Origin: a virus
Lineage: Duplodnaviria > Caudoviricetes
IMG/VR virus record: IMGVR_UViG_3300002552_000444
Coordinates: 1-64,000 of that record
Length of the DNA: 64,000 bases
Strand: one strand, 5' to 3'
A program made the translations under genes and the position numbers. Below, piece by piece: positions 6,754-26,457 of this stretch. Below the pieces are notes generated by a model. The model did no database searches. It worked only from the letters and a program-made list of their open reading frames with translations, and had not been told where the DNA came from. Each line of letters begins with the position of its first letter. Position 1 is the first letter of the stretch.

Positions 6754-8817
6754 TTAGTTTTTTATTTTGTTCAAGAAATCGCCGTTGTCGATTTCATAGA
6801 GCCATCGAAGATAACTTGCATAGACAATTGTCCTTGACTTGTATTTCATGTTTTCGATTGATTTTTCGCTTGTCAAAATAACTTGATTTTTTCCCCGCGT
6901 TAGAGCAACGAAAAACACTCTCAATTCCTCTTCTAAATCCTTATAAGTTTTTTCTCTCAAAAATCTTTCATAAGATTCGTCAACGACACTTTCTTCTTTT
7001 TTCCAAAACACATACTTGCTATCTAACCCGAACACCTTTTCTTTATCCAAAACAATCTCTTGTTTCTTCTTCCAAATCAAATTACGGTCAATATTCGGAA
7101 CAATGACTGAATCGAATGAGAGCCCCTTTGCTTTGTGGATCGTGGAAACAATTACCGCATTAGAAATCTTGTTGACAGGAATTTCTGCTTGATCTTCTTC
7201 CTTTTCAATCACAATCATCATGTTGAGATATTCAGCAAACTCGATTGATCGTATTGGGGACTCACCAAAGTTCCGCGCTATGTCGATGAGCTTGTGAAGG
7301 TTCGCCTCTTCTTGCTGTTTGTTCTGGGCTTGCAAATATTCAAGTAGGTGAGTCTTCTTATAGAGCAATTCCAAAAAGTGAGCAATGCTTTGACTTTTGA
7401 TTTCCTTACGAAGTTCAATTAGTAAGTTTGTGAAATTTGCATTGTCGGCAAACCTTGAATAACTCAAGCAGAATTCAGTATATTGAAATTCGGATTCAAA
7501 AACATCGCCTCCGTAGATAATGGCGTTTAGCATTTTAAGAGTGTCGATAATGCACGGTGACTTGTAGAAACTTTTGCCACCGTAAACAACAACAGGAATC
7601 TTTGCTTGCTTTAATGCCCTTACGCATCTTTCCAATTCATAGTTTGTCCTACAAAGCACAGAAATGCCCTTATAGCCTTGTTTGTTCCCTCTAGCAATCT
7701 CTACCGCACTTGTCACTTTCGTAGATTCTAGGAACTTCATAGGCTCATACATCGAATCATCACGAGTTGCTTTCAATTCAATGTGATCGAACTTTAACTC
7801 TCTTTTGTTGTGATAAAATTTCGACCTGAATATGTTGTTGATTTCCCTTATCAGAACTGTTCCCGCTCTAAAGTTTTCCGTCAGAATGACCCCTCCTTCA
7901 CCTAAATTCATCTTGCTTGCCATGTTGTCAAAACTGTCTGGATTTGCATTTCTAAAGTTATATATTGCTTGATTTTTATCACCCGCGATAAACAACTTAA
8001 TTCCAGCGTTCAGAAGTGAGGACAAAAACTTGTGCTGGTCATTGTCGGTGTCTTGAAACTCGTCAACGAACACATACTTAAACTGCTTTGCGACAATCTT
8101 TGCAGTTCTCTCGTCCTGCATCAATTTCGCCGCATATCTAATCGAATCATTTTTGGTTAGGATATTTTTTCTTAACTTCACTTTTTCAATTTCTTCAATT
8201 GCTTGCAAATACACATCTCGAATCGCCACCTTGATGTCTGCCAAACGCTCGTTAGGGTCATCAACAACAAAATCATCTATTGTTGCTTCAATGCCCTTGT
8301 CAAGATTTGACTCAATCAATTTTTTCACAAGAACAATCATCTTGTATGTTGGCAATAAATTAGCGCCATTATCTTCATATCGTTGCTTAATCGTTTCAAA
8401 AATTATTTCTTCTGATTCGCGAGCAAAACTGCCAACCAAGAAACTAGGAGCAATGTCAATTTCAAGTCCATGCTCACGAAGTAGTCTTTCGCAAAACTTA
8501 TGGATTGTGAAAATGTTGCTTGCTCCTAATTGGTCAATCTGCTCTCGTAAGAATGCGCTTGGATTGATTCGGTATTTTTTATACAACGCATCTGATAACC
8601 TATTCCTCATTTCATTTGTCGCATTGTTTGTGAAAGTTATTAGGACGATTTTATCAAGCGGCACTCCTCGGTCAATCAACTTCTCAATCTTGCGAACAAT
8701 AATTTCGGTCTTGCCTGTTCCAGCGCATGACACAAGGTAGCCTGGATAAACATTGCTATTTGCTTCCTGACTCTGCTGTTCGGTTAAATTCAAGTTTTTG
8801 ATGTTTTCCTTTCTCAT
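6754..8817 (-). CDS. UvrD/AddA-like SF1 helicase without C-terminal nuclease
   Basis: AGTGKT, ITFTNNA, TIHKFC, VDEFQDT, GDKNQAIYNFR, ENFR, LCRTN, STIHKAKGL, EEL.VFFVALTRGK. Confidence 0.92.
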   Translation of the reverse strand: MRKENIKNLNLTEQQSQEANSNVYPGYLVSCAGTGKTEIIVRKIEKLIDRGVPLDKIVLITFTNNATNEMRNRLSDALYKKYRINPSAFLREQIDQLGASNIFTIHKFCERLLREHGLEIDIAPSFLVGSFARESEEIIFETIKQRYEDNGANLLPTYKMIVLVKKLIESNLDKGIEATIDDFVVDDPNERLADIKVAIRDVYLQAIEEIEKVKLRKNILTKNDSIRYAAKLMQDERTAKIVAKQFKYVFVDEFQDTDNDQHKFLSSLLNAGIKLFIAGDKNQAIYNFRNANPDSFDNMASKMNLGEGGVILTENFRAGTVLIREINNIFRSKFYHNKRELKFDHIELKATRDDSMYEPMKFLESTKVTSAVEIARGNKQGYKGISVLCRTNYELERCVRALKQAKIPVVVYGGKSFYKSPCIIDTLKMLNAIIYGGDVFESEFQYTEFCLSYSRFADNANFTNLLIELRKEIKSQSIAHFLELLYKKTHLLEYLQAQNKQQEEANLHKLIDIARNFGESPIRSIEFAEYLNMMIVIEKEEDQAEIPVNKISNAVIVSTIHKAKGLSFDSVIVPNIDRNLIWKKKQEIVLDKEKVFGLDSKYVFWKKEESVVDESYERFLREKTYKDLEEELRVFFVALTRGKNQVILTSEKSIENMKYKSRTIVYASYLRWLYEIDNGDFLNKIKN

Positions 8818-13118: not shown

Positions 13119-14354
13119 CTAATCTTTCTGATTATTCGCAATCAAAATCTTAAATTTATCATCCAAGACATTTATCAATTGCTCCATGTAAAACTTAGAT
13201 TTTTCGTCAGAAAAGATATTCTTTTCCTCAAAATATTTGTAGAACATTCCAACAATATTTTGCAATGATGGAATTAAAGAATAAATGCAGGGCTGATATG
13301 TATCTTGTTTATCTAATCTCATTGTTTGAAATGTTGGGTGCGTGAACTTATTTGCATACATATAAGCTTCACGAACTGTCTTATAATTTGGGAAATTAAT
13401 GAACTGTTGCATATCAATAAAACTCAATTTGCTTTTTCTCTGCTTTTTAAACCAACTTGAAAACTCATTGATATTTAATAACCATCCATAATTAATAAAA
13501 GCACTACGCGTGATATTCCAAGTCGCTAAAACATTCGAAAGCTCCTTCTCAAGATTCTTTACATTTTCCAAAGTTTTTTTCGCAGATTTTTCATCCATCT
13601 CATTCCTAATTTTTTCAGGAGAATTATCAAAATCTAATCTCATAAATTTTGAGTGTTCCATGAATGCTTTAACTGCGACATCGCCATAAGTCGTAAGCAT
13701 TAATAAAATACATTCCTGTTCATGCAAATTTCGCCAAACAATGAAAGCCTCCCTGCTTTGACCTGCCGACAACAATCTTAATGAACTTTTGGCAGTTAAT
13801 ATCGCATAATGAAAAATTTCAAATATTCCTTCTTGTGGATGAGTGTCAGCTCTAACTGAATCCATGATTAAATTTAGCATTAAGTCACAAACCTCTCTGC
13901 TCACACATATTTCTGGGGACATCTCGTTAGTTGCAGATTTTATACCACTATCGTTAATTCTAGCCACAATATTATGTCCAACTTCAAGCGCCAATCTTTG
14001 TTGATAATCGCGGCTCTTTGACAAACTCGCTCTTTCATGGTCACTAAGTCTTTTCGTATGGAACAAATGGTAGTAAAAAATTGCCTCAGTTATAACGCTG
14101 ACAGGAGCAGTATTAACAATAAAATTAGGGTCTTGCATTATCTCAAACAATCCACTATTGCTCAAATGCTGTTCCATTGCATGAATAACAGGATGAATCA
14201 TACTACGAACAAAATTCTCTTTCGGGCGCGATGTGTCAACACCATGTTGCTGAACCAACTTCTTCCATTGTAATTCAAAATGCAAGTCCATTGGATCTTT
14301 CATTGGCATTTCTCTTCCTTGATTGTTATTCTGCGCTAATTTGTTCGGATTCAT
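13119..14354 (-). CDS. DUF5677/HEPN-like protein (possible Abi/defence RNase)
   Basis: WRNLHE, NYGWL and Y..ANKFTHPT motifs typical of DUF5677; own promoter TTGATA-17-TATAAT. Confidence 0.65.
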   Translation of the reverse strand: MNPNKLAQNNNQGREMPMKDPMDLHFELQWKKLVQQHGVDTSRPKENFVRSMIHPVIHAMEQHLSNSGLFEIMQDPNFIVNTAPVSVITEAIFYYHLFHTKRLSDHERASLSKSRDYQQRLALEVGHNIVARINDSGIKSATNEMSPEICVSREVCDLMLNLIMDSVRADTHPQEGIFEIFHYAILTAKSSLRLLSAGQSREAFIVWRNLHEQECILLMLTTYGDVAVKAFMEHSKFMRLDFDNSPEKIRNEMDEKSAKKTLENVKNLEKELSNVLATWNITRSAFINYGWLLNINEFSSWFKKQRKSKLSFIDMQQFINFPNYKTVREAYMYANKFTHPTFQTMRLDKQDTYQPCIYSLIPSLQNIVGMFYKYFEEKNIFSDEKSKFYMEQLINVLDDKFKILIANNQKD

Positions 14355-14498
14355 AATACAATTATATCATAATTAATCTAAAATATCAACCGAAATCTCA
14401 CTCTCGGAAAATCTACCGCGCCAATAAAAACACTTCAAAAAAATTCCTTTCAGAAAACTGCTAACCAAAATAGTGTAAACCACCCCCCCTAAAACGAC

Positions 14499-14540
14499 AA
14501 AGCCCGAAAGTCCAAAAACAAACTTTCAGGCTTTTTTTGC
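14499..14540. terminator. hairpin terminator downstream of the protease operon
   Basis: aaagcccgaaagt...actttcaggctttttttg. Confidence 0.65.
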
Positions 14541-14597
14541 TTTTCTCAAGATGAAATGGTGATTTGATGCTTTGAAAGTTTTTGAGCAAACACAGCG

Positions 14598-15665
14598 TTA
14601 TTTTATTGTGTCCTCCCTTAAAAGAAAACCTTGGTTGATATTGAAGTTGGGATCACTCTTATCAGAATACGAATTATTATGAACAGCAATATAAGTTCCA
14701 TCTTCAAAAAACACTGGACATCCGCTAGAGCCCGCCTTAGTATTTGTTTCATATTTCAATCTACTATTTGCAGTATCAACTTCAACAATTTCATCAGGTA
14801 TTCCAAACACTTTTTCTTTGCCGTTTGGATGACTAATTGTTGTAACATAACAATTCCCTATACCATTTTCGATTTCAGTCATTTTCGATTTAAAACTATA
14901 CACTTCAATCTCTTTAAATTTTTCAACAGAATTTAACACTCTTTGCCCATGATTGTTGATCTTCAAAACAGCAAAATCATTTTCCCCTGCCACTCCTGTC
15001 CCATAATAACAATTGTATGAAGGATCAAATTCAACCCGTATTTCTGAATTTGGGGTGGAGTCATAATATAAAGTCGCACTCGCACTTGCAAGATTAATAT
15101 TATACTCTTTTTGATAGCCATGACGAATATTATTATTACTTTCACTCATAAATGGACTAAATTCACTCGTTTTGTTATTTTCATTATTCTGTAAATTCTT
15201 TTTTAATATCCGATTAGATAAAGAATGGCGAGCCGTAATCACATAGAAATTCCCATCATCTTTTTTAATAACATATCCTGAGGATGGTCTCTTTTTTCCT
15301 TTTTCTATTATTCTTAATCCATCAGAAGAATAGATATCTTTTTTAACCATCATCATACAAACTCTATGATGCTTGTCGAATATTTTTAATAAAGCCTCTA
15401 CTCTTCTAATTTTCAAAAAATCAAATATTTGGGTCGGTTTCCCATCGAAATTGACCATCATCGCCTCATCGTGGCACTTCTCTTTTTCAATTTTCTTTAA
15501 TTGCTCAATTTCTAGTAAACTTAAAGATTTTTTTTTGCAAATCTTTTTTGCGATTTTATTTATAGAAATGTGATTATTGTCACCTACGACAACCGTCACA
15601 TTAGCTCCAGAACCTACATCACCTATTGTAATATCTCCCACTCTAACAGTTTTCTTGTTTTTCAT
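14598..15665 (-). CDS. trypsin-like serine protease with N-terminal amyloid-like motif
   Basis: Catalytic triad ITARH, ENDFAVL, GSSGCPV; AGGAGG RBS before MKNKK at 15665; no signal peptide. Confidence 0.88.
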   Translation of the reverse strand: MKNKKTVRVGDITIGDVGSGANVTVVVGDNNHISINKIAKKICKKKSLSLLEIEQLKKIEKEKCHDEAMMVNFDGKPTQIFDFLKIRRVEALLKIFDKHHRVCMMMVKKDIYSSDGLRIIEKGKKRPSSGYVIKKDDGNFYVITARHSLSNRILKKNLQNNENNKTSEFSPFMSESNNNIRHGYQKEYNINLASASATLYYDSTPNSEIRVEFDPSYNCYYGTGVAGENDFAVLKINNHGQRVLNSVEKFKEIEVYSFKSKMTEIENGIGNCYVTTISHPNGKEKVFGIPDEIVEVDTANSRLKYETNTKAGSSGCPVFFEDGTYIAVHNNSYSDKSDPNFNINQGFLLREDTIK

Positions 15666-15718
15666 TTCTGTTCCTCCTTGATTTTTATAAATCATTTACA
15701 GCAAAATTTTATGCTATA

Positions 15719-16747
15719 TTATGCTTCAATATTATTGCCATGGCCTATGCTAATGATCAAAGTAGCCCCCTCTTTTAAATCTCCAGTTTTAATATTTCCT
15801 ACTTTAATAATCTCATTGGTTCCCATTGATTTTTCTCTAAATTCATTATTTATTTTAACTTTAACTTTTTTATCAATTTCCGTTTTTATACTACTTCGAA
15901 TTCCAATTAATGCATTAAAAACTTTTAGTGAATCGGTATCTTTAGAGCTTGCAATTGCATTTTTCGCACTTTCAATAAACTCAGATTTTTTTTCAAAATT
16001 TACTGAATTAATTAGATTAGCTTTCTCAAGATATGTCACTACTTTACTTATTGCACATTCAATTGCCCTATTCAAATTAATTGTCTTATTATTTTTAAAT
16101 TTTTTAGTTTCTCGCAATGCTCTAAATCTATCACAATAATTTTTAAGATTTGAAAAAAATAATGTTCTTTTAGTTTCATCTGTCAACAATTCCTGTATTG
16201 TAAAGTGTTCATTAATTAAATCTTTAAATTCAAGTTTATTATTTAATACTAAAGCTGCATGATAAGCTCTGCTGAGAAGTGACGCAATTTTATGAATTGG
16301 ATTGTAATTTTGTTCATTAACATCAAAACCAGTAATTAACGCAACAGGAGGCGGGTGTTGTTTAATGCTTGAATAAGCATCAGAAATTATATTGTAAATA
16401 TCAAAAATCTTATGATCAGTCTTCTTAAACTCATCTTTAATATCAACAAACAAACTTAATGCATCAAGATTTTCATCAATTAAAATAAAATCAAATTTAG
16501 TGTTTTCTTTACTTTCATTATCTTTAATAAATTTTTTCACAAATTTATCTTTATCGTCAATACATATAAATTTTAAATCAAATTTACAACTATGATCGAC
16601 TAGAATCATTTTAAATAATTTATCATATAAATCATAACGACTCTCACTACCTAATTCTGTTGTTGATGCATAATTTCGAGTATTTCTACCTGTAGAATAC
16701 ACTTCATCGTCAATAATTAAAATTTTGTATTCATTCTGTTCTAGCAC
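15719..16747 (-). CDS. receiver (REC)-domain protein with C-terminal amyloid-like motif
   Basis: KILIIDDE, FDFILIDENL (phosphoacceptor Asp), VALITG; GTG start with GGAGG inside the upstream gene's end. Confidence 0.7.
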   Translation of the reverse strand: MLEQNEYKILIIDDEVYSTGRNTRNYASTTELGSESRYDLYDKLFKMILVDHSCKFDLKFICIDDKDKFVKKFIKDNESKENTKFDFILIDENLDALSLFVDIKDEFKKTDHKIFDIYNIISDAYSSIKQHPPPVALITGFDVNEQNYNPIHKIASLLSRAYHAALVLNNKLEFKDLINEHFTIQELLTDETKRTLFFSNLKNYCDRFRALRETKKFKNNKTINLNRAIECAISKVVTYLEKANLINSVNFEKKSEFIESAKNAIASSKDTDSLKVFNALIGIRSSIKTEIDKKVKVKINNEFREKSMGTNEIIKVGNIKTGDLKEGATLIISIGHGNNIEA

Positions 16748-16752
16748 TTCTT

Positions 16753-19700
16753 TTACAAGTCCTCCATAAAAAATGTGTAAATTTTTGATGTTATCTTATT
16801 TTTTTCAGGTTCACAACTAATATCCGGATTAACAAAATTGTCTTCAATTTTTGACTTATATTTTTTGCGATATCGTATCATTTCCATTTGAGTCGGCAAA
16901 TTCTCAGATTCATTAAATTTACTTTTAATTTCTTCAATCAAATTCTCATCACCGTGAAAGCACTCAACACAAAAAACAATTTCAAAACCTTCAAATTTGG
17001 CTATAATATTTATATTACATTCATTCGAAACTGAATATATTTCTCCCAACATTCTTAAAAATTCTTCTTTATGCTCTCTAGTAAAAAAAACATCTCCTCT
17101 CGTTTTGTTAAACTCAACCTCTTTTTTTAGCAAACTGAAATCAAGTTTAATTTTAGCACCAAAAAACCTTGCGACTATTTCCTTATTAAAATAACTTTCT
17201 AAATCAAAATAATGATTATCAATTTTATATTTTCCTGCTATTTCTATAGACTCATCCAACCCAAATTCATCGAAGGGTATATAATAATCTTTCGACATAT
17301 AAATTGTTAAATACTTTGCAATTTTTTTTGCTAAATTACTTGTCTTACTTAAACAATTTTCGCTTTCAACTTCATCTCTGAATATATTTAATTGTTTTTT
17401 TACTTCAATCAATTCATTCTTAAAATGAAAATCATTTTTTGAAAGATTTTCCAGTAATTTTTCGACATGATTAATTGCAAATATAACATCTTCTTTTTCA
17501 TTAAGTTCCTTTAGTTTCGAGGTTCGTCTTTTTCCATGCATGGTAATCCACTGATAAATTTCTTTCACAATAGAAACCCTATCAACATTTTCATTCATCA
17601 TAGAAAAAATTTCTGGTGCGTATCTAATAAATGTTCTTTCCAAAGACATTCTCAAAAATAAAATATTTCTAACTGTATCCAAAATATCTATCTGAGAAGT
17701 TTTTTTTGAAAACTCCAGATACATATATACATATCTCGCACTCAAACCTGTAGCACTATCTTTTTTTAGAGGAACGTGATACGGAATTTTCAAAACAACA
17801 TATTTTTCATCAAAAATTTCACATTCATCAATAATAAATGTATCAAGAATCCATGACTTGTCATTTCTAGTGAATTGATAAATTCTGTTAGATATCTTAG
17901 TTCTATCAGCATTTCCTTGTGTGGCAACATGGTAGAAAATGTCATTATCAGATTTTGCACACATGCTAAAACTTTTTACTAATCTATTTGATATTATAAT
18001 TGTGTTATCCAAATCATCTAAAGTTGTTCTACCATCATCAACTCTATTTTTAATTCCCTCAATTTTTTTCTTGCGCAATATATCATACAAACCTAACCTC
18101 TCTCTTTCTTGTGCATTTATTGAAAGAGTTAAAATCTCTTTTGCAACTTTCTTTCTTTCTGCAAAAATAGAACTATCCCATTTTTGTTTTCCACCCCATG
18201 CGTCCCAATTCAAATTCTCACCTGTTGCTTCCCATTTTTTGTAATTATCTGAAGTTTCTCTATAAAGATGCTGAACATTTTCCATGTAAAGTGCCATTAA
18301 CAACCTTAACTTAAATCTATCTTTTTCACCTAAGCAATTAGATTTCTTATCTCTAAAATTATCCAATTTAGACTTCAGTATCCCATCAAATTCGCAACAC
18401 AAAACATTGTCTGACCGAGCGTCAATCAACCATTTTACATAACTACAAAATTGGAAAACAAAACTATTTTCTAAACCTACATCATAATACGAAAGCGAAT
18501 GTTTATCGTTATAACCTGTATCATTTTCCTGACTTTTTTCGATGTCTTTCAATTTAAACCAATAATCAATTATTTTATCAATTTTATCCGATCTCAATAA
18601 GTACAATGACCCTAAATTTGCAAGCCTTTTAAGTAATATATTAAACAATTGAAATTGACTCAAAAAGGGAACAAGCCGATCTTTATATTCCCCTTTTTTC
18701 ATTACAACTGTTACCATATAAGAGCAAACTATCTCAAGTTTTTCTTTGTACTTACCACCCACATCTAAACTCTTATCGTGAATTTTAACAGCACCACTAA
18801 AACAAAATTCAATAATCTCTAAAAGAATGGTCAAAACTGCCTGTCCAATATGATGATATTTTGACATCGGCGGTCTCGACAAAACTTTTATATATGAAAT
18901 CAATCCTTCGAAGCAAAGTATAACTTGTTTTCTAACTTCCTTCTTGTATAAAAGTTTTTCTTCTTCTGATTCTTCAATGTCATTAAAATCTCCTTTTATT
19001 TTCACTTCTAAATCTTTCAATTTTTTATTATAAAAAACTTTTTCACAAATTAACTCTAGAATATTGTGCTTTGTAATGAAATTTATCTCATTTCTACTCT
19101 TTCCTTCGAATTCCAAAAACAAAAACTCAAGTTTTTCTACTGAATAATGTGTTGCCTTTAATCTACTAAGATACCTTCTCTGCAGAACATCATTTTTCAT
19201 ATACTCAATCTTTTCTCTTTTTTCTTTGTGTATGGAGTCACTACACCCAGACAAATGAATTTCTTGCTCATACCATTTTAGATAACCATTTGCACTGCCC
19301 TCATTTGAATCTCCATCCCAATTTGCATTTTCAAGTTTTTCATTGAACCAAGTGTCATACTCTTTATAGTTTCTAATCTCATTTTTATCTAGACACTTTT
19401 TCCAAAAATCATTCAACCGATTGGTAGAAGACATCTTAGACAACAACAAATAGTCATCTTGTACATCGCAAGACGGACACCTTAAGTTTCTTGTTTTAAG
19501 TCCCTTTATTTTTAAATCCAAATAAGAAAATATTTTTAATACTCTAGAATTTGTGCTATCACATTGGCAATTACAATCTATAAATTGTGTTAAATTTTTC
19601 TTATTTCTATTGTTAACTAAAGTAAATATCCCAGAAAATAAATTTAGTTTTATTTGCTTATTCTTCGGCAGCTCCCCATCATCTAAAGCTTCGTCAAAAA

Positions 19701-22700
19701 GCATTTGAAGCAAGGATTTAGTTTGCATTATACTTCTACCACTTGTTATTCTATCATCAACATAATAGGCATTAATATTGACACTTGAAAAATTATCAAT
19801 TAAACCTCTAACATCTTCAGTGATATAACTAAGTTGCGCTCTTACACCCTCCCTATTTACTGCACCTAGTGGAAAATAAATAAATTTCAAATTATGTGCA
19901 AAAACATTTTCAGCTACTGATTTAACAAACTCAGAATTGGTGGTGTGTTGCGGTGCAACAATAAGATTGAAAGTATATTCTTTAGATAATTCTTTCTTGT
20001 TTATATCAATCAAATCACTTCTACATTTATTTAACCATTCTTTAATTTTGTCTTTTTCTTTGTTGTAGTATTTCTCTGTATCAACATAAAATAAATAATG
20101 ATTTTCGTTTCTTTCTACATGAGCATTTATTAAACAACCGCTTAATGAATCTAATTTTCTCTCAATATCATTGTTCGATGTATTATTCGATAAAGTTTTG
20201 TCCATCTTCCTTCCTTTTAACTCAAATACATGCCCTAATCTAGAAATTTCACGCTTAACTTTAACAAAAAGTTTTTCATCTAAAACATTAACTTTATCAA
20301 AATAATATTTATAGTCACTTTGTATATCTTCATCTATATCTATATCATCAATTTGAATAAAACTTTTCGCCTCAACATCCTTCTTTATCTTTTTTATTTC
20401 ATCCCCACTGATCTCATTAAGATTCTTCTTTATAATATGTTTAATATAACAATCAAAATATTTTTTACCCGGATATTGAACGACAGCAACTTTCCCCAAA
20501 GAATCTTTTTCTTGATTAATATAATATTTTTTTCTTAATTCATCTTTCAAAAATGTTTCAATTTCTTTAAAATTATTTGTAAGAGCATTTATAGGCTCTA
20601 CAAACACAATATCAAACACATCATTATTTATCAATTTTTCTCTTTTAAAAGCATCAAGTTTCTCTTCCAAATCATATGAAGGATCAAAAATACGATCTTG
20701 ATTTCTTGATTTGCAATAATTAACCAAAGCAAGATACACCATCTTTTTGTTTTGAATAAAATCGTCCTCTTTACTTGATTTGCTGTTTTTGTTCAACCTA
20801 ACCTTGTCTCTATAATCAAAATAGTCCTGAACAAATTTTTGCACTTGCTGAAGATTAATACTATTATATTGTCTATGTCCAACCAATAGGAGCGGTCTAT
20901 TGCTCTCAAGTTCCTGGCTCTTGTCTAAAAAAGCAATTACTTCTTGTGCAATTAGATATGAAAGTTTATATATCTTTGATAAATTATTGAATGGTAAATC
21001 AATGGCATAAAAATCTTTCATCCTTATATAATTTACATAGAAATAAACATCCTCCAGTTTTACACCAAAATCTTTCTTTTCTTGTATTTTTTTAAAGAAC
21101 ATATTCTCTAGATCCCTAATAAAAAATGAAGGAGTTTCGTTGCTATTTTGCGCATCCTCACTACGACCTAAATTTGGAATCAAATCAAAAGGAAACAGAT
21201 TCTCTACTTCTTCCAAAGCGGTATCATTTTTTGCGCTAGGAACCCACTTAATCGCTGATAAAATGCCTAAACAATCGCTTGATTGAGCAACATTAGGATT
21301 ATTATATGTGAAAAGTTTTGCTACATTATAAAACGATTCGATTTTATCGCCAACAATCATAAATTTTACGCTTGGAGCGCTATCTTTATTGCCCTTATTT
21401 ATTATTGCAATTTGCACATTTTTCATAGCATCTTGCTTGCCTTGCAGGTAAAATATACTGAAAAATTTTGCAAATTTTTTAATGGCTTTCAATTGACCAA
21501 TATTGTTGCTATTCTCACTCCACACAAGTGCATATAAGTCAGTTGCTTTTTTCTTGCGTTCTCTCTTTTCGTCATGTCTCATTATTATGCATTTTAAAAA
21601 TGCTTTGCAAAATGCCTCGATTTTGTCTAATTTTAAACTTCCTAATTCAATTTGTATAATGGGAACGCTTTCACCATCTTTCAAACAAGAGTTTCTTTTT
21701 GCGCTAATATTTTCATAAAGAATTTTTCCGAATTCATTTATTTTATCTATTTTATCATCTTGAGAAAAGGTGTGTAATATTTTAGCAGAAAATCTATCAA
21801 TTTCTCCTATTAATTCTTTTCCAACATTTTCTATTACCTTAATTTTTTTGTCAATATACTCAATACCATAAATATTTCCACCGTCAAAAACCGCATTTAC
21901 CCCATCATCAAAACGAGTGAATCCTATTGGCAATAAAACTGAAAATATACTCCCATTTAGAACTTGTTCATACCTAGGATTAACATCTAATTCAATTGTT
22001 TTACTATCAAGTTTTAGTCCATATTCCTCTCTCATCTCTCCCTTGGATTGAGCAATAAAATACCCTCCATTGCTGAGAACAGATCTTGCAAACAAACGAA
22101 TACCATAATGGTGCATTGCATTTTCTGATTTAGAAACAAAATCCAAGTGATCCCCGACCAATCTATCTTCATTAAAGAAACCCGAAAAATGACATCTAAC
22201 TTCATTTAAATTTTTACCTGAATTTTGTGCTATTCTCTCAGAAAATGTTTCAGAAATACTTTGCTTTCCAAAATCAAAAATTTGCAATTCCAAGTGATAC
22301 TTGTAAGATTTAACTATACTACTCTTAAACAGTTCTTTGCCTTCATTTTCAGATTTTGCTGCATCAAATAAGTATTTGTTTTTCAAATGCTTTCTCTTAT
22401 TAATGCTTCGCACATCCCTAGACAAATCATTTCCACTATCTCCAGTTTGATGTATTCTCAAGCTAAAAAAACCATCTGCCTTTAAATCCTCTTTTTCCGG
22501 CTGCCTTATTCTCGCATGTCGAATAGTGTTTTCAATTAATTCATTTATTCCAGTTGCGTAATCAAATGACTCTTCAATTATTTTCTCAAACTGAATCGAC
22601 AGATTTTGCATATCAAAATATCTATCTTCCGCATATGAAGCAATCAACATAGTCGCAATCAAAGATTGCATAGCAGGTAGATCGCTAACGCGAGTATTAA

Positions 22701-23895
22701 TCTCCTTCGCAAATTTTTTCTTTTCATCTACACCTGCGTCTTTCCCGCATGCAAGAGTTAAGAACTTTACAGAATCAAATAAATTTCCAACAATAGTAGT
22801 ATCAATTATTGTCTCTAGATCAACTTTTGAACCATCCAGATAAAATTTGACTGGATTAGTTTTTCCCACATTAATCCTTCTTATATGTTCTATCAACCAC
22901 TCCTTTTTAGATCCCTGCTTACTCCTAATTTTACAAAAAAAATCTGATTCAAAGTTAATTTCATCAACACAAGAAAACAATTCAGAAGAACCTCTTTTTT
23001 GTAAAAACTTATCTAAATCATTATCGTCATTTCTAAATTTCAAAAGTGGGACTAAATTTCCTATACTAAAATCTGAATCATATATAAATGTAGCGTTATT
23101 GCACAAAAAAACAGCATTCGATGTATTATAATTCAAATAAAAAAGATATGCTCTCCACCTAACAAATTCATCACGGTCAAACTTAAAATCAATAATGAAA
23201 TCTTTTTCTTTATTATTCTCAACAATGCCAAGCAAACATATAAAATCCGATACCAAAAAGTTTTTATAGAAATTATCAACATTTATTCTAATAATCTCCG
23301 CATCTCCATAAAAAATTTCATCGCTTAAAATTTGTCCATCAATTTTATTCACATCCTTAGATTTATCAAATTCACTCAGAAACAACCCCTCAATTGCAAT
23401 GTTGTCTTCATTCTTAACTAAATCAAATTCATTAGTATTATCCTTTTTAATAAATGAAAACTTGTTAAATATCTCATCATATTCATAGTCGAAAGTTATT
23501 AATTTATTGTCGCTAAAATAAACCAAAAAGTTGTTAAACCCACCTATCTCATTATTAAATATCATCTTTAAAAAATTTTCATCCAACTCCCACCAATCTA
23601 ATCGTTTAAAATATTTGTCATTTAACTCCTCTCTAATAAATAAACAACCATCATCAATTATAATATCATCATTATTTAAAATATTGGATGAGGACACCAC
23701 CCTAAATTTAATGTCATATTTTTCATTATCAAACTCATCTATCTTAATTGTTTGTTCAGCAATACCAAACAATCTTTCAACAATTTCCTTCGTATTATTA
23801 AATTTCAAAAAAGATGAACCATATTTTGATTCAAAATAAAATATTATATTATTAACTTTTTCGTTTTTCTTTTTAAAATTTTTTGACATAAACAT
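16753..23895 (-). CDS. giant multidomain protein: HATPase/histidine-kinase-like plus PRTase-like domains
   Basis: ELIENTIRHA (N-box), LQIFDFG (G1), HHYGIRLF; YYVDDRITSGRS PRPP-binding loop; CPSC; 2380-aa uninterrupted ORF. Confidence 0.7.
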   Translation of the reverse strand: MFMSKNFKKKNEKVNNIIFYFESKYGSSFLKFNNTKEIVERLFGIAEQTIKIDEFDNEKYDIKFRVVSSSNILNNDDIIIDDGCLFIREELNDKYFKRLDWWELDENFLKMIFNNEIGGFNNFLVYFSDNKLITFDYEYDEIFNKFSFIKKDNTNEFDLVKNEDNIAIEGLFLSEFDKSKDVNKIDGQILSDEIFYGDAEIIRINVDNFYKNFLVSDFICLLGIVENNKEKDFIIDFKFDRDEFVRWRAYLFYLNYNTSNAVFLCNNATFIYDSDFSIGNLVPLLKFRNDDNDLDKFLQKRGSSELFSCVDEINFESDFFCKIRSKQGSKKEWLIEHIRRINVGKTNPVKFYLDGSKVDLETIIDTTIVGNLFDSVKFLTLACGKDAGVDEKKKFAKEINTRVSDLPAMQSLIATMLIASYAEDRYFDMQNLSIQFEKIIEESFDYATGINELIENTIRHARIRQPEKEDLKADGFFSLRIHQTGDSGNDLSRDVRSINKRKHLKNKYLFDAAKSENEGKELFKSSIVKSYKYHLELQIFDFGKQSISETFSERIAQNSGKNLNEVRCHFSGFFNEDRLVGDHLDFVSKSENAMHHYGIRLFARSVLSNGGYFIAQSKGEMREEYGLKLDSKTIELDVNPRYEQVLNGSIFSVLLPIGFTRFDDGVNAVFDGGNIYGIEYIDKKIKVIENVGKELIGEIDRFSAKILHTFSQDDKIDKINEFGKILYENISAKRNSCLKDGESVPIIQIELGSLKLDKIEAFCKAFLKCIIMRHDEKRERKKKATDLYALVWSENSNNIGQLKAIKKFAKFFSIFYLQGKQDAMKNVQIAIINKGNKDSAPSVKFMIVGDKIESFYNVAKLFTYNNPNVAQSSDCLGILSAIKWVPSAKNDTALEEVENLFPFDLIPNLGRSEDAQNSNETPSFFIRDLENMFFKKIQEKKDFGVKLEDVYFYVNYIRMKDFYAIDLPFNNLSKIYKLSYLIAQEVIAFLDKSQELESNRPLLLVGHRQYNSINLQQVQKFVQDYFDYRDKVRLNKNSKSSKEDDFIQNKKMVYLALVNYCKSRNQDRIFDPSYDLEEKLDAFKREKLINNDVFDIVFVEPINALTNNFKEIETFLKDELRKKYYINQEKDSLGKVAVVQYPGKKYFDCYIKHIIKKNLNEISGDEIKKIKKDVEAKSFIQIDDIDIDEDIQSDYKYYFDKVNVLDEKLFVKVKREISRLGHVFELKGRKMDKTLSNNTSNNDIERKLDSLSGCLINAHVERNENHYLFYVDTEKYYNKEKDKIKEWLNKCRSDLIDINKKELSKEYTFNLIVAPQHTTNSEFVKSVAENVFAHNLKFIYFPLGAVNREGVRAQLSYITEDVRGLIDNFSSVNINAYYVDDRITSGRSIMQTKSLLQMLFDEALDDGELPKNKQIKLNLFSGIFTLVNNRNKKNLTQFIDCNCQCDSTNSRVLKIFSYLDLKIKGLKTRNLRCPSCDVQDDYLLLSKMSSTNRLNDFWKKCLDKNEIRNYKEYDTWFNEKLENANWDGDSNEGSANGYLKWYEQEIHLSGCSDSIHKEKREKIEYMKNDVLQRRYLSRLKATHYSVEKLEFLFLEFEGKSRNEINFITKHNILELICEKVFYNKKLKDLEVKIKGDFNDIEESEEEKLLYKKEVRKQVILCFEGLISYIKVLSRPPMSKYHHIGQAVLTILLEIIEFCFSGAVKIHDKSLDVGGKYKEKLEIVCSYMVTVVMKKGEYKDRLVPFLSQFQLFNILLKRLANLGSLYLLRSDKIDKIIDYWFKLKDIEKSQENDTGYNDKHSLSYYDVGLENSFVFQFCSYVKWLIDARSDNVLCCEFDGILKSKLDNFRDKKSNCLGEKDRFKLRLLMALYMENVQHLYRETSDNYKKWEATGENLNWDAWGGKQKWDSSIFAERKKVAKEILTLSINAQERERLGLYDILRKKKIEGIKNRVDDGRTTLDDLDNTIIISNRLVKSFSMCAKSDNDIFYHVATQGNADRTKISNRIYQFTRNDKSWILDTFIIDECEIFDEKYVVLKIPYHVPLKKDSATGLSARYVYMYLEFSKKTSQIDILDTVRNILFLRMSLERTFIRYAPEIFSMMNENVDRVSIVKEIYQWITMHGKRRTSKLKELNEKEDVIFAINHVEKLLENLSKNDFHFKNELIEVKKQLNIFRDEVESENCLSKTSNLAKKIAKYLTIYMSKDYYIPFDEFGLDESIEIAGKYKIDNHYFDLESYFNKEIVARFFGAKIKLDFSLLKKEVEFNKTRGDVFFTREHKEEFLRMLGEIYSVSNECNINIIAKFEGFEIVFCVECFHGDENLIEEIKSKFNESENLPTQMEMIRYRKKYKSKIEDNFVNPDISCEPEKNKITSKIYTFFMEDL

Positions 23896-23958
23896 TATTC
23901 CTACATTTTAAATTTTTTTTATGCTCTTAGCAAACTAAAAAATTTAATATTATTTATA

Positions 23959-23987
23959 ATAATACCACAAATTACGACAAATATCAA
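23959..23987 (-). promoter_or_regulatory. sigmaA promoter of the three-gene operon
   Basis: TTGATA-17-TATTAT with TG extension. Confidence 0.6.
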
Positions 23988-24005
23988 CTGAATTTTTAGC
24001 AAAAT

Positions 24006-24044
24006 AAAAAGAAGTAATGCTCATTTATACATTACTTCTTTTTT
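24006..24044. terminator. bidirectional terminator
   Basis: aaaaagaagtaatg-ctcatttata-cattacttctttttt. Confidence 0.8.
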
Positions 24045-24198
24045 CTTTGAATCCACACCCCACAAAATTATTTCATACTTTATAGTTATCGATAAAACTA
24101 ATACTCAAAAGATAATTTCAATCAAATTATCATTTGGTCACTCCTAATTTATTTTAACAACTATAATAACTTTGACACTTTTTAAAAATTTACATCTT

Positions 24199-24696
24199 TT
24201 AACTGCTTAAATGTTTTTCTAAGTTTTTTCTTGCACTTTTCAGGGAAGCTCGAACACTTCCTGCATCAAGACCTAATAACATCGCAATACTTTCTGATGT
24301 CATATCTTCAAAATAATGTAGGTATGTAATTTCAGCCTGACGAGCTGGCAGTTTCTTGATTGCTTCTGCAATGTCTACCGCATCATCAATATTGATTTCA
24401 TCTGTTGCCAACGATTCTGAATCAAATTCTTCGGCAATTTCTTCATTATGTCGATACATCTTTCTTAAAAAACTATTTACCTTATTATCTGTAACTCTAT
24501 GTAACCAATTTTTAAAATGCTTTTCACTTTCAAAATTCTTTCCTGACTTTATAAACTCGTAAAAAACATCATGCAAAATATCTTCTTTGTCGTGCTGAGA
24601 TACAATGCGCGTTGAAATGCAACCTAAAAGAGTGCGAGAATACTCTATGAGCATCCCATCAAAATCTATATTGATTTTTTCTTTTGTTTGTTGCAA
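24199..24696 (-). CDS. ECF RNA polymerase sigma factor
   Basis: EDILHDVF, F...WLHRV..N (region 2); LPARQAEI..LHYFEDM...IA.LLG....SVRASLKSARKNL (region 4). Confidence 0.92.
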   Translation of the reverse strand: MQQTKEKINIDFDGMLIEYSRTLLGCISTRIVSQHDKEDILHDVFYEFIKSGKNFESEKHFKNWLHRVTDNKVNSFLRKMYRHNEEIAEEFDSESLATDEINIDDAVDIAEAIKKLPARQAEITYLHYFEDMTSESIAMLLGLDAGSVRASLKSARKNLEKHLSS

Positions 24697-24822
24697 TTGT
24701 TTACCTCATCCTTCCATTTTGTTTTTAATTTTTATTTTTCTATATACAATTATAACATAAACCAACATTCAATTCAAGCATTTTGTTCATGGTTATTTAA
24801 AAAAAATTTCATTATTTGATTT

Positions 24823-25452
24823 TTATTTTTGCATGACTATAAGATTAATTACATCATCACTGCCTAGCAATATTTCAAATTCAACATATCCCTCAAGAAA
24901 ACTGCCCGCTTTTGATAGCGTTGTTGTAACTCTAATTATTTGATTAGATGCGCTCTGGTATTCATAGACAAGTCCACACATATCAACACGATTCACTCCA
25001 TCTCGACCTGACCCATTCATGAATACTCTACCTTTTTTAAATTCAATTATTTTTGCGGTTTGCCTTGTCTCATTTTTTAGAATTTTTCTTACTCTATTTT
25101 CACGCTTAATCCATAAAATTAAATGCCTTGACAACAAAAGCCAAAATCCTATGCTCAAAACGAATGCAAAAATTCCAATCCCAATCAATGTTCCTCGTTC
25201 ATGAATATGCTCACCGCTCAAACGAATAAGGATAACTCCACCCGCCAAAAGACCTCCAGCAAATGCCAAGTAAAACAAAGAAAAGATAATTAAAAAAACT
25301 ACGACAACAGCCCCACTATCGGTGGATTTGCCGATATATGCGGTTCTTCCTTCTTCAGCTTCTACCTCTCGCTTGTTTTTTTTGTTTTCAATAACTATGA
25401 ATTTATGTATTTTATTGTTGTTGTTCATTTTTTTAAATTCCAATGAATTCAC
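24823..25452 (-). CDS. membrane protein (2 TM plus C-terminal beta domain)
   Basis: Two hydrophobic segments followed by AKIIEF...LVYEY. Confidence 0.7.
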   Translation of the reverse strand: MNSLEFKKMNNNNKIHKFIVIENKKNKREVEAEEGRTAYIGKSTDSGAVVVVFLIIFSLFYLAFAGGLLAGGVILIRLSGEHIHERGTLIGIGIFAFVLSIGFWLLLSRHLILWIKRENRVRKILKNETRQTAKIIEFKKGRVFMNGSGRDGVNRVDMCGLVYEYQSASNQIIRVTTTLSKAGSFLEGYVEFEILLGSDDVINLIVMQK

Positions 25453-26457
25453 TTAATGCCAAGATGTTCTATAAAATCTTATTGCAACATTGTGATTTCC
25501 ACTATATCCCACAGCCCCCATAATCCCACTCCATGATGACACCATTCTTGTTATCTGATTATTTCCGCTTAAAAATATCTCGTGAATAGATGATAAAATT
25601 CTTGTATTTTCTTCTGCTGACGGATGAACTGTTCTCAATAAGCCATCTTCACATTCAAAATAAAAACCTAAATACCAATTAATTATGTTTATAGTTCCAG
25701 TCGTTTCAAAACTTTGCTTAATAGTGCGATATGACAATCTTAAACGAATTTGGGAGGCTCTGTAAAGATTATATTCAAATGTATATCCCTCGTCGTGGGT
25801 TAATACCTCTCCAAAGATATACAACTCATCACTCATATTAACTCCGTTTGCATAATAGCGAATTAATCCATTTCCTTGAGCATCAAAATGCAAATACATC
25901 GCCCTAGTCTGCTCTGGAATAAAATTACTTATAAACAAATATTCACGAAAAATATTAAAACCGTCGTTAAATGTTCCCTCATATTTATAAGTGACAATAT
26001 TATTCACAAAGCCAGCATAGCAATACCTATAAGCTCTTAGTTTGTTTTCTACATCATAAATATGAAAAACTAAATAATGTCCTGCATGAGAACCTTCCCA
26101 AGCTATTTTAACTCTGTCATTCTCGATGATATATTGCCCTTGTCTGTCAATTGTTATGACTTGAAAAGGATCCCCTGGTTGAGGGTCGAACCAGCGTACT
26201 CTTTGAACAGTGCCATTTTCAAAAAAGCGTATAGTCATTTCATCAGCTACACTAAGGTAATCTCGATTTCTGTAGACAGGCATCCACTGATGAAAAAATC
26301 TATATTCACCAGCAAATTGTGACACATCCGCCAACCTATTAGAATAGGTTGGGCAATCCGCACATTCAAATGGTTCATTTTGAACAGCGCACGAAAAAGC
26401 AGTCGAAAACATTAGAAATACGATTAAAAAAGTTGATATTTTTATTATTTTTTTCAT
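25453..26457 (-). CDS. lipoprotein
   Basis: MKKIIK plus hydrophobic core plus AFSC lipobox; AAGGAG RBS. Confidence 0.75.
   Translation of the reverse strand: MKKIIKISTFLIVFLMFSTAFSCAVQNEPFECADCPTYSNRLADVSQFAGEYRFFHQWMPVYRNRDYLSVADEMTIRFFENGTVQRVRWFDPQPGDPFQVITIDRQGQYIIENDRVKIAWEGSHAGHYLVFHIYDVENKLRAYRYCYAGFVNNIVTYKYEGTFNDGFNIFREYLFISNFIPEQTRAMYLHFDAQGNGLIRYYANGVNMSDELYIFGEVLTHDEGYTFEYNLYRASQIRLRLSYRTIKQSFETTGTINIINWYLGFYFECEDGLLRTVHPSAEENTRILSSIHEIFLSGNNQITRMVSSWSGIMGAVGYSGNHNVAIRFYRTSWH

Follow-up and report, generated by a model that had tools for sequence, protein, structure and literature searches.

What does it mean when one protein ends, and the protein encoded next to it begins, with versions of the same short sequence? 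This question is raised by a locus in a 64,000-nucleotide stretch of viral DNA (hereafter, the window; Duplodnaviria, Caudoviricetes) that corresponds to positions 1 to 64,000 of IMG/VR record IMGVR_UViG_3300002552_000444. Three genes are arranged head to tail on the minus strand: a gene for a giant protein of 2,380 residues (gene 1; 16753-23895), a gene for a 342-residue protein with a receiver-like N-terminal domain (gene 2; 15719-16747), and a gene for a putative trypsin-like serine protease. The last 35 residues of the gene 2 protein and the first 35 residues of the protease are two copies of one motif, which we call the tag. An earlier note on this DNA had described the motif as amyloid- or RHIM-like and had proposed that a two-component receiver, and not an NLR, templates the amyloid fold of a protease, a wiring that it did not recognise as described.

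The tag occupies residues 308-342 of gene 2 (15722-15826, minus strand), the protein ending in ...MGTNEIIKVGNIKTGDLKEGATLIISIGHGNNIEA, and residues 1-35 of the protease (15561-15665, minus strand), which begins MKNKKTVRVGDITIGDVGSGANVTVVVGDNNHISI. The two copies align without gaps and with Met opposite Met, and all five aligned glycines are identical. When the whole proteins are compared by BLASTP, residues 308-340 of gene 2 match residues 1-33 of the protease (11/33 identical, 20/33 positive, E = 3e-4); this E value is adjusted for composition and takes no credit for the segments being exactly terminal and adjacent. No other part of the two proteins is matched, which confirms the earlier note both on the common terminal motif, here extended to 35 residues, and on the unrelatedness of the rest. 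Scored without gaps under BLOSUM62, the two 35-residue ends give 62. None of 4,000 composition-preserving shuffles reaches this value (mean 22.5, standard deviation 4.5, maximum 46; z approximately 9), nor does any of 4,000 random pairings of C-terminal and N-terminal ends from other open reading frames of the record (mean 16.5 ± 3.8, maximum 45). With a profile made from the two sequences, each copy scores 103; across all six frames of the 100-kb record, no other position exceeds 24, so that these are the only two copies in it. The similarity of the two ends is genuine and far exceeds chance expectation, and its position is exactly that of homotypic signalling tags.

Each copy can be read as the same pattern, consisting of a strand, G-D/N, a strand, G-D, a Gly-rich turn, a long Val/Ile strand, G-D/H-N-N and a last strand. 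Glycine makes up 16% of the tag and proline is absent, with turns of Asn and Asp and runs of Val, Ile and Thr; Lys and Glu account for 10% each in the gene 2 copy. In both copies the best self-offset is an 18-residue pseudo-repeat (TVRVGD/TVVVGD in the protease, IIKVGN/IISIGH in gene 2). Judged by its make-up, the tag is in keeping with amyloid signalling motifs published for bacteria and fungi, including the four-strand model for BASS11. Two other roles for the tag were rejected: a secretion or lipoprotein signal is disfavoured by the lack of a hydrophobic helix, and an encapsulin or capsid targeting peptide because the two copies are at opposite termini and belong to a defence-type operon in which no shell gene is found.

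The protease open reading frame opens at 15695, but the true start is the ATG at 15665, giving a protein that begins MKNKKTVRVGD...; the start is supported by an AGGAGG ribosome-binding site (15673-15678, minus strand) 7 nt upstream and by the database gene call, which is the 355-residue form. The tag is followed by a Lys/Glu-rich linker (residues 36-125; 15291-15560, minus strand) without a family match in Pfam or NCBIfam, and residues 1-125 have no usable match in the ESM Atlas. The protease domain comprises residues 126-355 and, with the stop codon, covers 14598-15290 (minus strand). It matches Pfam Trypsin_2 (PF13365) over profile positions 2-144 of 144 with E = 3e-5, at 25.2 bits against a cut-off of 27.6 bits, and it has the triad motifs ITARH (H147), NDFAVL (D230) and GSSGCPVF (S314). 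A sequence search of the PDB with the protease matched no protease, and neither a signal peptide nor a hydrophobic membrane helix is seen in its sequence. Thus, the earlier description of a cytoplasmic trypsin-like protease with an intact H/D/S triad holds for the motifs and for the missing signal peptide, and its family membership, given a match below the cut-off, is probable.

What does the third position of the operon contain elsewhere? For the giant protein, 13 homologues are found in databases and 10 loci in GTDB genomes; among the hosts are Lachnospiraceae, Acutalibacteraceae, Clostridiaceae, Defluviitaleaceae, Bacteroidales and a candidate division WOR-3 bacterium. A recurring order is seen in approximately 20 loci: a giant protein (approximately 2,000 residues), a small protein (163-277 residues) and a third protein (330-418 residues). 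The loci of the operon family that were read are L001, L005, L007, L010, L011, L013, L015-L021 and L023. In ten distinct loci (L007, L010, L011, L013, L015, L016, L017, L019, L020 and L023), the third protein is of the DUF2971 type, the domain of the single-gene lactococcal antiphage system Aristaios, with a predicted ADP-ribosyltransferase fold (PMC11381338). In five homologues, the giant protein carries a fused Metallophos phosphoesterase; in L005, such an enzyme is encoded by the adjacent gene. The closest relative, L001, encodes a fusion (7244-8668) of the N-terminal domain of gene 2 to a PNP_UDP_1 domain, and this latter domain matches the PADLOC model 'Effector, PN-superfamily' with E = 4e-6. 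This PNP half aside, PADLOC matched neither the three proteins of the window nor the giant and gene 2 proteins tested in relatives; in the effector slot, it also matched PDC-S60 to the Metallophos protein of L005 and gave a borderline match (E = 0.01) to a DUF2971 protein. Some relatives adjoin type I restriction-modification, Lamassu, SIR2-STALD or HepT genes. From these data we infer that the operon family is a defence-type system, so far uncatalogued, whose effector slot can be swapped. Since the protease occupies the slot that is held by known defence-type effectors in the related operons, it is plausible as an effector. A different downstream module is present behind a Metallophos-bearing giant gene in L003 (6975-9831), where two unrelated genes, for proteins of 241 and 701 residues, are followed by RimK/Mur-ligase-like genes; the 701-residue protein has a weak CDC48_N-like match and a C-terminal hydrophobic helix.

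In the related loci, gene 2 stops soon after its alpha/beta domain and the effector carries no tag. The window locus alone has a gene 2 with a spacer and a tag, a protease as effector, and the same tag on that effector. Hence the tags lie at the facing termini of genes in one predicted operon, and only in the locus where the effector differs. Paired motifs in homologous loci had been set beforehand as a test of the proposed coupling and, taken literally, the result goes against it: the tag is absent from approximately 14 distinct related loci, where the facing ends score 13-29, the null level of random pairs, versus 62 in the window. The untagged relatives carry another effector and a short gene 2, which suggests that the tag came with the effector swap; their lack of a tag is therefore not proof that it is meaningless.

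The giant protein contains a histidine-kinase-type (GHKL) ATPase domain at approximately residues 436-665 (21901-22590). Pfam and PADLOC give no match for the protein; when the region is compared by hhalign with 15 true HATPase_c domains, the probability is 90% in local mode (P = 1.4e-6) and 89% in global mode, and the N, G1, G2 and G3 boxes line up. Beyond the ATPase domain, a phosphoribosyltransferase (PRTase)-like loop, YYVDDxIxSGxT (VDDxxSG), and a CxxC pair are conserved. No NLR or STAND NTPase domain (NB-ARC, NACHT) was detected in any of the three operon proteins by Pfam, NCBIfam or PADLOC, in agreement with the earlier view that the wiring does not involve an NLR.

Gene 2 has three parts: an alpha/beta domain recognised by homology to the small gene 2 of relatives (residues 1-170; 16238-16747, minus strand), a spacer (residues 171-307; 15827-16237, minus strand) and the tag. 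The spacer, of approximately 135 residues, is predicted to be helical by AlphaFold2 (AF2) at low confidence and, by alignment, has no counterpart in the short gene 2 proteins of relatives. The alpha/beta domain contains the motifs KILIIDDE, FDFILIDENL with the invariant D91, and VALITG. Thirteen gene 2 proteins share an hhIDD or hhIED first strand, an invariant Asp in hhhhD-h-x-L and, usually, an hhhS/T strand. We compared a profile of eight compact gene 2 members with 25 true receivers from two genomes that carry the system. The global hhalign alignment covers all 119 columns (score 26.6, P = 4.9e-5, probability 40%) and places DD13-14, the acceptor Asp (D91) and the beta4 Ser/Thr of gene 2 on their receiver counterparts; among the controls, reversal of the receiver profile gives 5.7, and none of 20 column-shuffled queries exceeds 10.5. 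The beta5 Lys of receivers is not evident in the window's gene 2 protein. AF2 models show a beta-alpha-beta-alpha pattern at low confidence, both for the 342-residue protein (6 sequences; predicted local distance difference test (pLDDT) score 42.5, too low for a usable structure) and for the compact relative from L007 (13 sequences; pLDDT 53.5). Foldseek with the low-confidence L007 model gave no match at E<=0.001, and VIA-align gave generic alpha/beta folds, with a best Z of 4.3. Receiver domains (ComE, CikA) occur among many generic alpha/beta ties in the fold searches (Z 3.4-3.8), and the ESM Atlas yields only sub-threshold leads for the 342-residue protein, to OKR_DC_1_N and Response_reg clusters at 0.83-0.84. 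Calling the N-terminal domain receiver-like is moderately supported by these comparisons.

We propose, tentatively and at somewhat less than an even chance, that the two ends are homologous homotypic coupling tags that attach a swapped-in protease to a receiver-like adaptor by beta-stacking in the style of BASS and HET-s, with clustering activating the protease. The copies are very probably homologous. Coupling is suggested by the fact that the adaptor domain is fused to the effector in L001 and tag-linked to it in the window, which is how effector-associated domains (EADs) were defined (PMC7159879); a terminal segment in common is also the genomic mark of amyloid signalling pairs. The giant protein would sense a signal and act on the receiver-like domain, with phosphotransfer to D91 as one possibility. 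The C-terminal tag of the adaptor would thereby be freed or ordered, and could then stack with the protease tag as short beta-strands between Gly-Asp/Asn turns, forming a BASS/HET-s-like cross-beta structure. The resulting clusters would turn the protease on, much as other immune proteases are activated by induced oligomerisation; forced dimerisation activates a Hachiman-associated trypsin-like defence protease (PMC12799240). We infer tag-tag binding, its cross-beta or amyloid mode, activation by clustering and a role in defence. A more elaborate version, which we consider rather unlikely, is an amyloid switch on a phage or prophage that is gated by the ATPase or by phosphorylation: the tag of the receiver-like adaptor would be unmasked and would template the protease into a filament, leading to abortive infection without an NLR. 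If true, such a switch would join two-component-style to amyloid signalling, with a protease as executioner and no NLR.

A number of observations weigh against the coupling proposal. Ten related loci have a DUF2971 effector without a tag, which means that the system needs no such tag in general. A second tagged pair was not found in any collection searched, and the locus is single. For the 342-residue adaptor, a word-indexed search of 5.8 billion clustered proteins returned only itself, and a phmmer scan of 1.8 billion representatives returned itself and one spurious repeat protein. The protease has no relative in the 5.8 billion clustered proteins, in viral contigs or in metagenome contigs, and only one weak partial match in 399 Clostridia genomes. 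The two-sequence tag alignment found nothing in viral or metagenome contigs, and tblastn against phage records was empty; in the 399 Clostridia genomes it matched internal segments of unrelated proteins, none of them terminal or paired, whose flanks read, for example, as pseudouridine-synthase-like, translational-GTPase-like and collagen-like proteins. The only other database copies are identical, so there is no allelic variation to use. Given that neither the tag, the protease nor the adaptor has relatives, conservation and covariation provide no evidence for coupling. The ratio of nonsynonymous to synonymous differences (dN/dS) between the tag copies is approximately 0.83 by NG86, and selection on the tag is only marginally shown.

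Parts of the proposed mechanism also have weaknesses. Both tag copies lack the G-phi-Q-phi-G core of RHIM and BASS3 (there is no Gln, and the turns are G-D, G-N and G-H), so that the label 'RHIM-like' is not apt. For the internal 18-residue pseudo-repeat, significance is not reached (P about 0.1). Assignment of gene 2 to the receiver family is weak: Response_reg (PF00072) gives no Pfam match at E<=5 in any of 6 gene 2 proteins, NCBIfam returns nothing significant, and PDB profile searches return no REC chain. What survives of the 'REC' protein of the earlier note is the hhalign similarity with its aligned acceptor Asp, whereas Pfam, NCBIfam, PDB-profile and fold searches give it no significance. 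Finally, the 14-sequence alignment of the giant family contains no invariant His upstream of the N-box of the ATPase, which makes phosphotransfer from the giant protein to gene 2 possible but speculative.

Three other explanations of the tags have to be weighed against coupling by stacking. All of the coupling evidence applies equally to an ordinary, constitutive docking interface, in which the tags would form a closed beta-sheet or beta-solenoid heterodimer that either tethers the protease to the adaptor or clamps it in an inhibited state until a signal releases it, with no polymer and no templating. Each tag can be read as three pentapeptide-like units (G-D/N/A-h-x-x) plus a fourth strand, an arrangement that might allow closure into a finite beta-structure, and the Lys/Glu-rich adaptor copy is less typical of aggregation-prone cores. 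Moreover, the ten untagged loci couple adaptor and effector, so that stable contacts are the norm of the family. On the other hand, very short and exactly terminal tags of adjacent genes are amyloid-forming in the characterised cases, and, at approximately 30 residues, the tags are small for forming a stable globular interface on their own. We regard docking as possible but not likely. Chance resemblance between two low-complexity, Gly/Val/Ile-rich ends would be in keeping with the compositional bias of both segments and with the ease with which motif searches elsewhere return unrelated G/D/V-rich segments (E 0.001-1). The failure of every composition-preserving shuffle to reach the observed score brings this explanation close to refuted, and the composition-adjusted BLASTP match stands even before the terminal, adjacent position is credited; we consider it most improbable.

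The DNA bears on a third alternative, namely that a scar makes up the adaptor tail: some 35 codons from the start of the protease gene, with the ATG, would have been duplicated or recombined onto the end of gene 2 when the protease cassette took the place of the usual effector, and would since have been drifting without a function. The alignment does open at a Met in both copies. In-frame identity of the coding segments is 61/105, and third codon positions match in 21/35 cases versus 14.7 ± 2.7 expected from operon codon usage given the amino acids (P = 0.017), a modest excess that points weakly to a common origin of the two segments as DNA. The differences are spread evenly over the three codon positions (16, 14 and 14; 25/44 are transitions), dN/dS has the value given above, and there is no second locus that shows the tail being maintained. 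However, the reading frame of the tail remains intact and stops exactly at the end of the tag, although the DNA is AT-rich and prone to stop codons, and DNA similarity does not continue beyond the gene 2 stop codon (P = 0.59). When the two junction regions are aligned locally as DNA, the score of 24 does not differ significantly from the null of 21.5 ± 3. The amino acid replacements, with the five aligned glycines kept and swaps of V/I, D/N, R/K and V/L, are more conservative than random mutation at equal DNA distance would give (P about 0.007; about 0.04 when the transition bias seen here is included). In addition, the tail is accompanied by the spacer of approximately 135 residues. As the spacer is likewise absent from the relatives, it appears that a whole [spacer + tag][tag + linker + protease] module was imported, rather than a duplicate of 35 codons. 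We therefore judge the scar to be unlikely, and prefer coupling tags.

How does a coupling tag of this kind compare with described systems? In HET-s/NWD2 and related fungal pairs, the receptor-side motif templates the effector-side motif, and HET-s forms two 21-residue rungs. The two 18-residue pseudo-repeats (hhxhG[D/N/H]) hinted at, without significance, in both window copies are reminiscent of this; the window differs from HET-s/NWD2 in lacking an NLR as receptor and a pore-former as effector. In bacteria, the bacterial amyloid signalling sequences (BASS) 1-10 are found in pairs of genes for a Bell-domain effector and an NLR, and hydrolase, TIR2, CHAT and cyclase effectors have been noted beside Bell (Dyrka et al. 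2020, bioRxiv 10.1101/2020.01.06.895854). The window shares with those pairs a tag of approximately 20-35 residues, rich in G/N/D and beta-branched residues, at the facing termini of adjacent genes that are otherwise unrelated, as well as an immune or cell-death setting, which here is suggested by gene context. It differs in having a GHKL-type ATPase in the giant protein instead of an NLR or STAND NTPase, in having a trypsin-like protease instead of a Bell domain, and in its tag, which lacks the G-phi-Q-phi-G core of BASS3 and RHIM. The orientation is reversed relative to Bell/NLR pairs, the sensor-side tag being C-terminal and the effector-side tag N-terminal. Furthermore, the tag resides in a low-GC island associated with a phage or prophage, and not in filamentous Actinobacteria or Cyanobacteria, and no family of pairs was found.

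A precedent for amyloid tagging without an NLR is Bab/Agp, an abortive-infection antiphage system carried by a prophage of the unicellular bacterium Escherichia coli in which the BASS11 tag links a non-NLR sensor to an effector (bioRxiv 10.1101/2024.11.07.622273). The model of BASS11 has four short strands interrupted by glycines, and BASS11 is reported on CHAT, TIR and EAD7 proteins (Ibarlosa et al. 2024, bioRxiv 10.1101/2024.11.07.622273). The pattern of the window tag is much like this four-strand model, as compared by description and not by sequence. [quoted passage not shown] With amyloid tags published for non-NLR sensors (Bab/Agp, BASS11) and on CHAT, TIR and hydrolase effectors, the earlier statement that such wiring is not described was too strong.

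Three further comparisons concern the adaptor and the effector. In NTP-dependent conflict systems, EAD1-11 place an adaptor on a core component and on a neighbouring effector, with direct fusions in related systems, and trypsin-like peptidases are common effectors (Kaur, Burroughs, Iyer, Aravind 2020, PMC7159879). The window resembles them in carrying the same adaptor element on a core component and on the next-door effector, with a direct effector fusion in a relative. EADs, however, are globular, several of them alpha-helical and Death-like, and occur as families, whereas the window tag is a 35-residue element of beta type seen once; Pfam and NCBIfam gave no match of the window proteins to EAD, Death-like or related models. 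In Detocs, a kinase (DtcA), a receiver buffer (DtcB) and a receiver-PNP effector (DtcC) work together, and effector swapping has been reported (Rousset et al. 2023, bioRxiv 10.1101/2023.01.24.525353). The similarity lies in a kinase-type ATPase protein followed by a receiver-type domain that would govern an effector, and the L001 fusion has a DtcC-like architecture behind a non-Detocs giant protein. PADLOC found no match to the DtcA, DtcB or DtcC models in the three window proteins or in the giant and gene 2 proteins of relatives; neither HisKA/DHp nor TPR is recognisable in the giant protein, which does have PRTase-like domains, there is no buffer receiver, and Detocs effectors are fused rather than linked by a tag, as is proposed for the window. 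Trypsin-like proteases have been acquired by Hachiman, AVAST, Lamassu and DRT systems, in which the protease is part of a fusion with the defence protein and has a neighbouring MBL pro-nuclease as its target (PMC12799240). The window protease would likewise be a trypsin-like immune module, with activation by induced oligomerisation shown in those systems and proposed here; it is, by contrast, free-standing and tagged, and there is no MBL gene.

Amyloid-type tags common to adjacent immune genes, including those of non-NLR sensors, are thus already known. What is new is the set of partners and their wiring, i.e., a receiver-like adaptor behind a giant kinase-type ATPase/PRTase protein and a tagged trypsin-like protease, together with the reversed orientation of the tags and a tag without detectable relatives, all resting on a single locus. 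If the tags do couple, they would represent a case of effector swapping in a large, uncatalogued family of defence-type operons by means of an imported plug-and-socket module, and they would extend BASS/HET-s-type signalling to a receiver-like adaptor, a soluble serine protease effector and reversed tag orientation. With two 35-residue tags, one Asp and one Ser to mutate, the locus provides a compact test case for short beta-tags as either conformational switches or simple docking pieces.

With regard to transcription, the gap between the giant gene and gene 2 is 5 nt, and that between gene 2 and the protease gene is 53 nt (15666-15721 on the minus strand, including the gene 2 stop codon at 15719-15721). 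A consensus scan found a promoter-like site, TTGATA-17-TATTAT with TG, 5' of the giant gene (23959-23987, minus strand), and by the same kind of pattern match a terminator-like hairpin of the preceding unit (24006-24043). At the other end, a pattern scan identified a terminator-like hairpin of 16 pairs followed by a T-run (14499-14534, minus strand). The promoter-like site, the short gaps and the flanking terminators together point to a single operon.

The whole record is 100 kb long, is classed as viral and has a GC content of roughly 40%. Within the window, GC content is 26-32% over 14-26 kb versus approximately 38-44% elsewhere. Identical proteins are also found on contigs of 370-419 kb, which makes it probable that the locus is an integrated element, or an island adjoining one. 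The far edge of the low-GC island (14000-26000) carries a gene for an ECF sigma factor (24199-24696) and two small genes without a known family. Directly downstream of the operon terminator is a gene for a 411-residue DUF5677 protein (13119-14354, minus strand), which has its own promoter-like site with a near-consensus extended -10 element (14361-14389; 11/12 matches).

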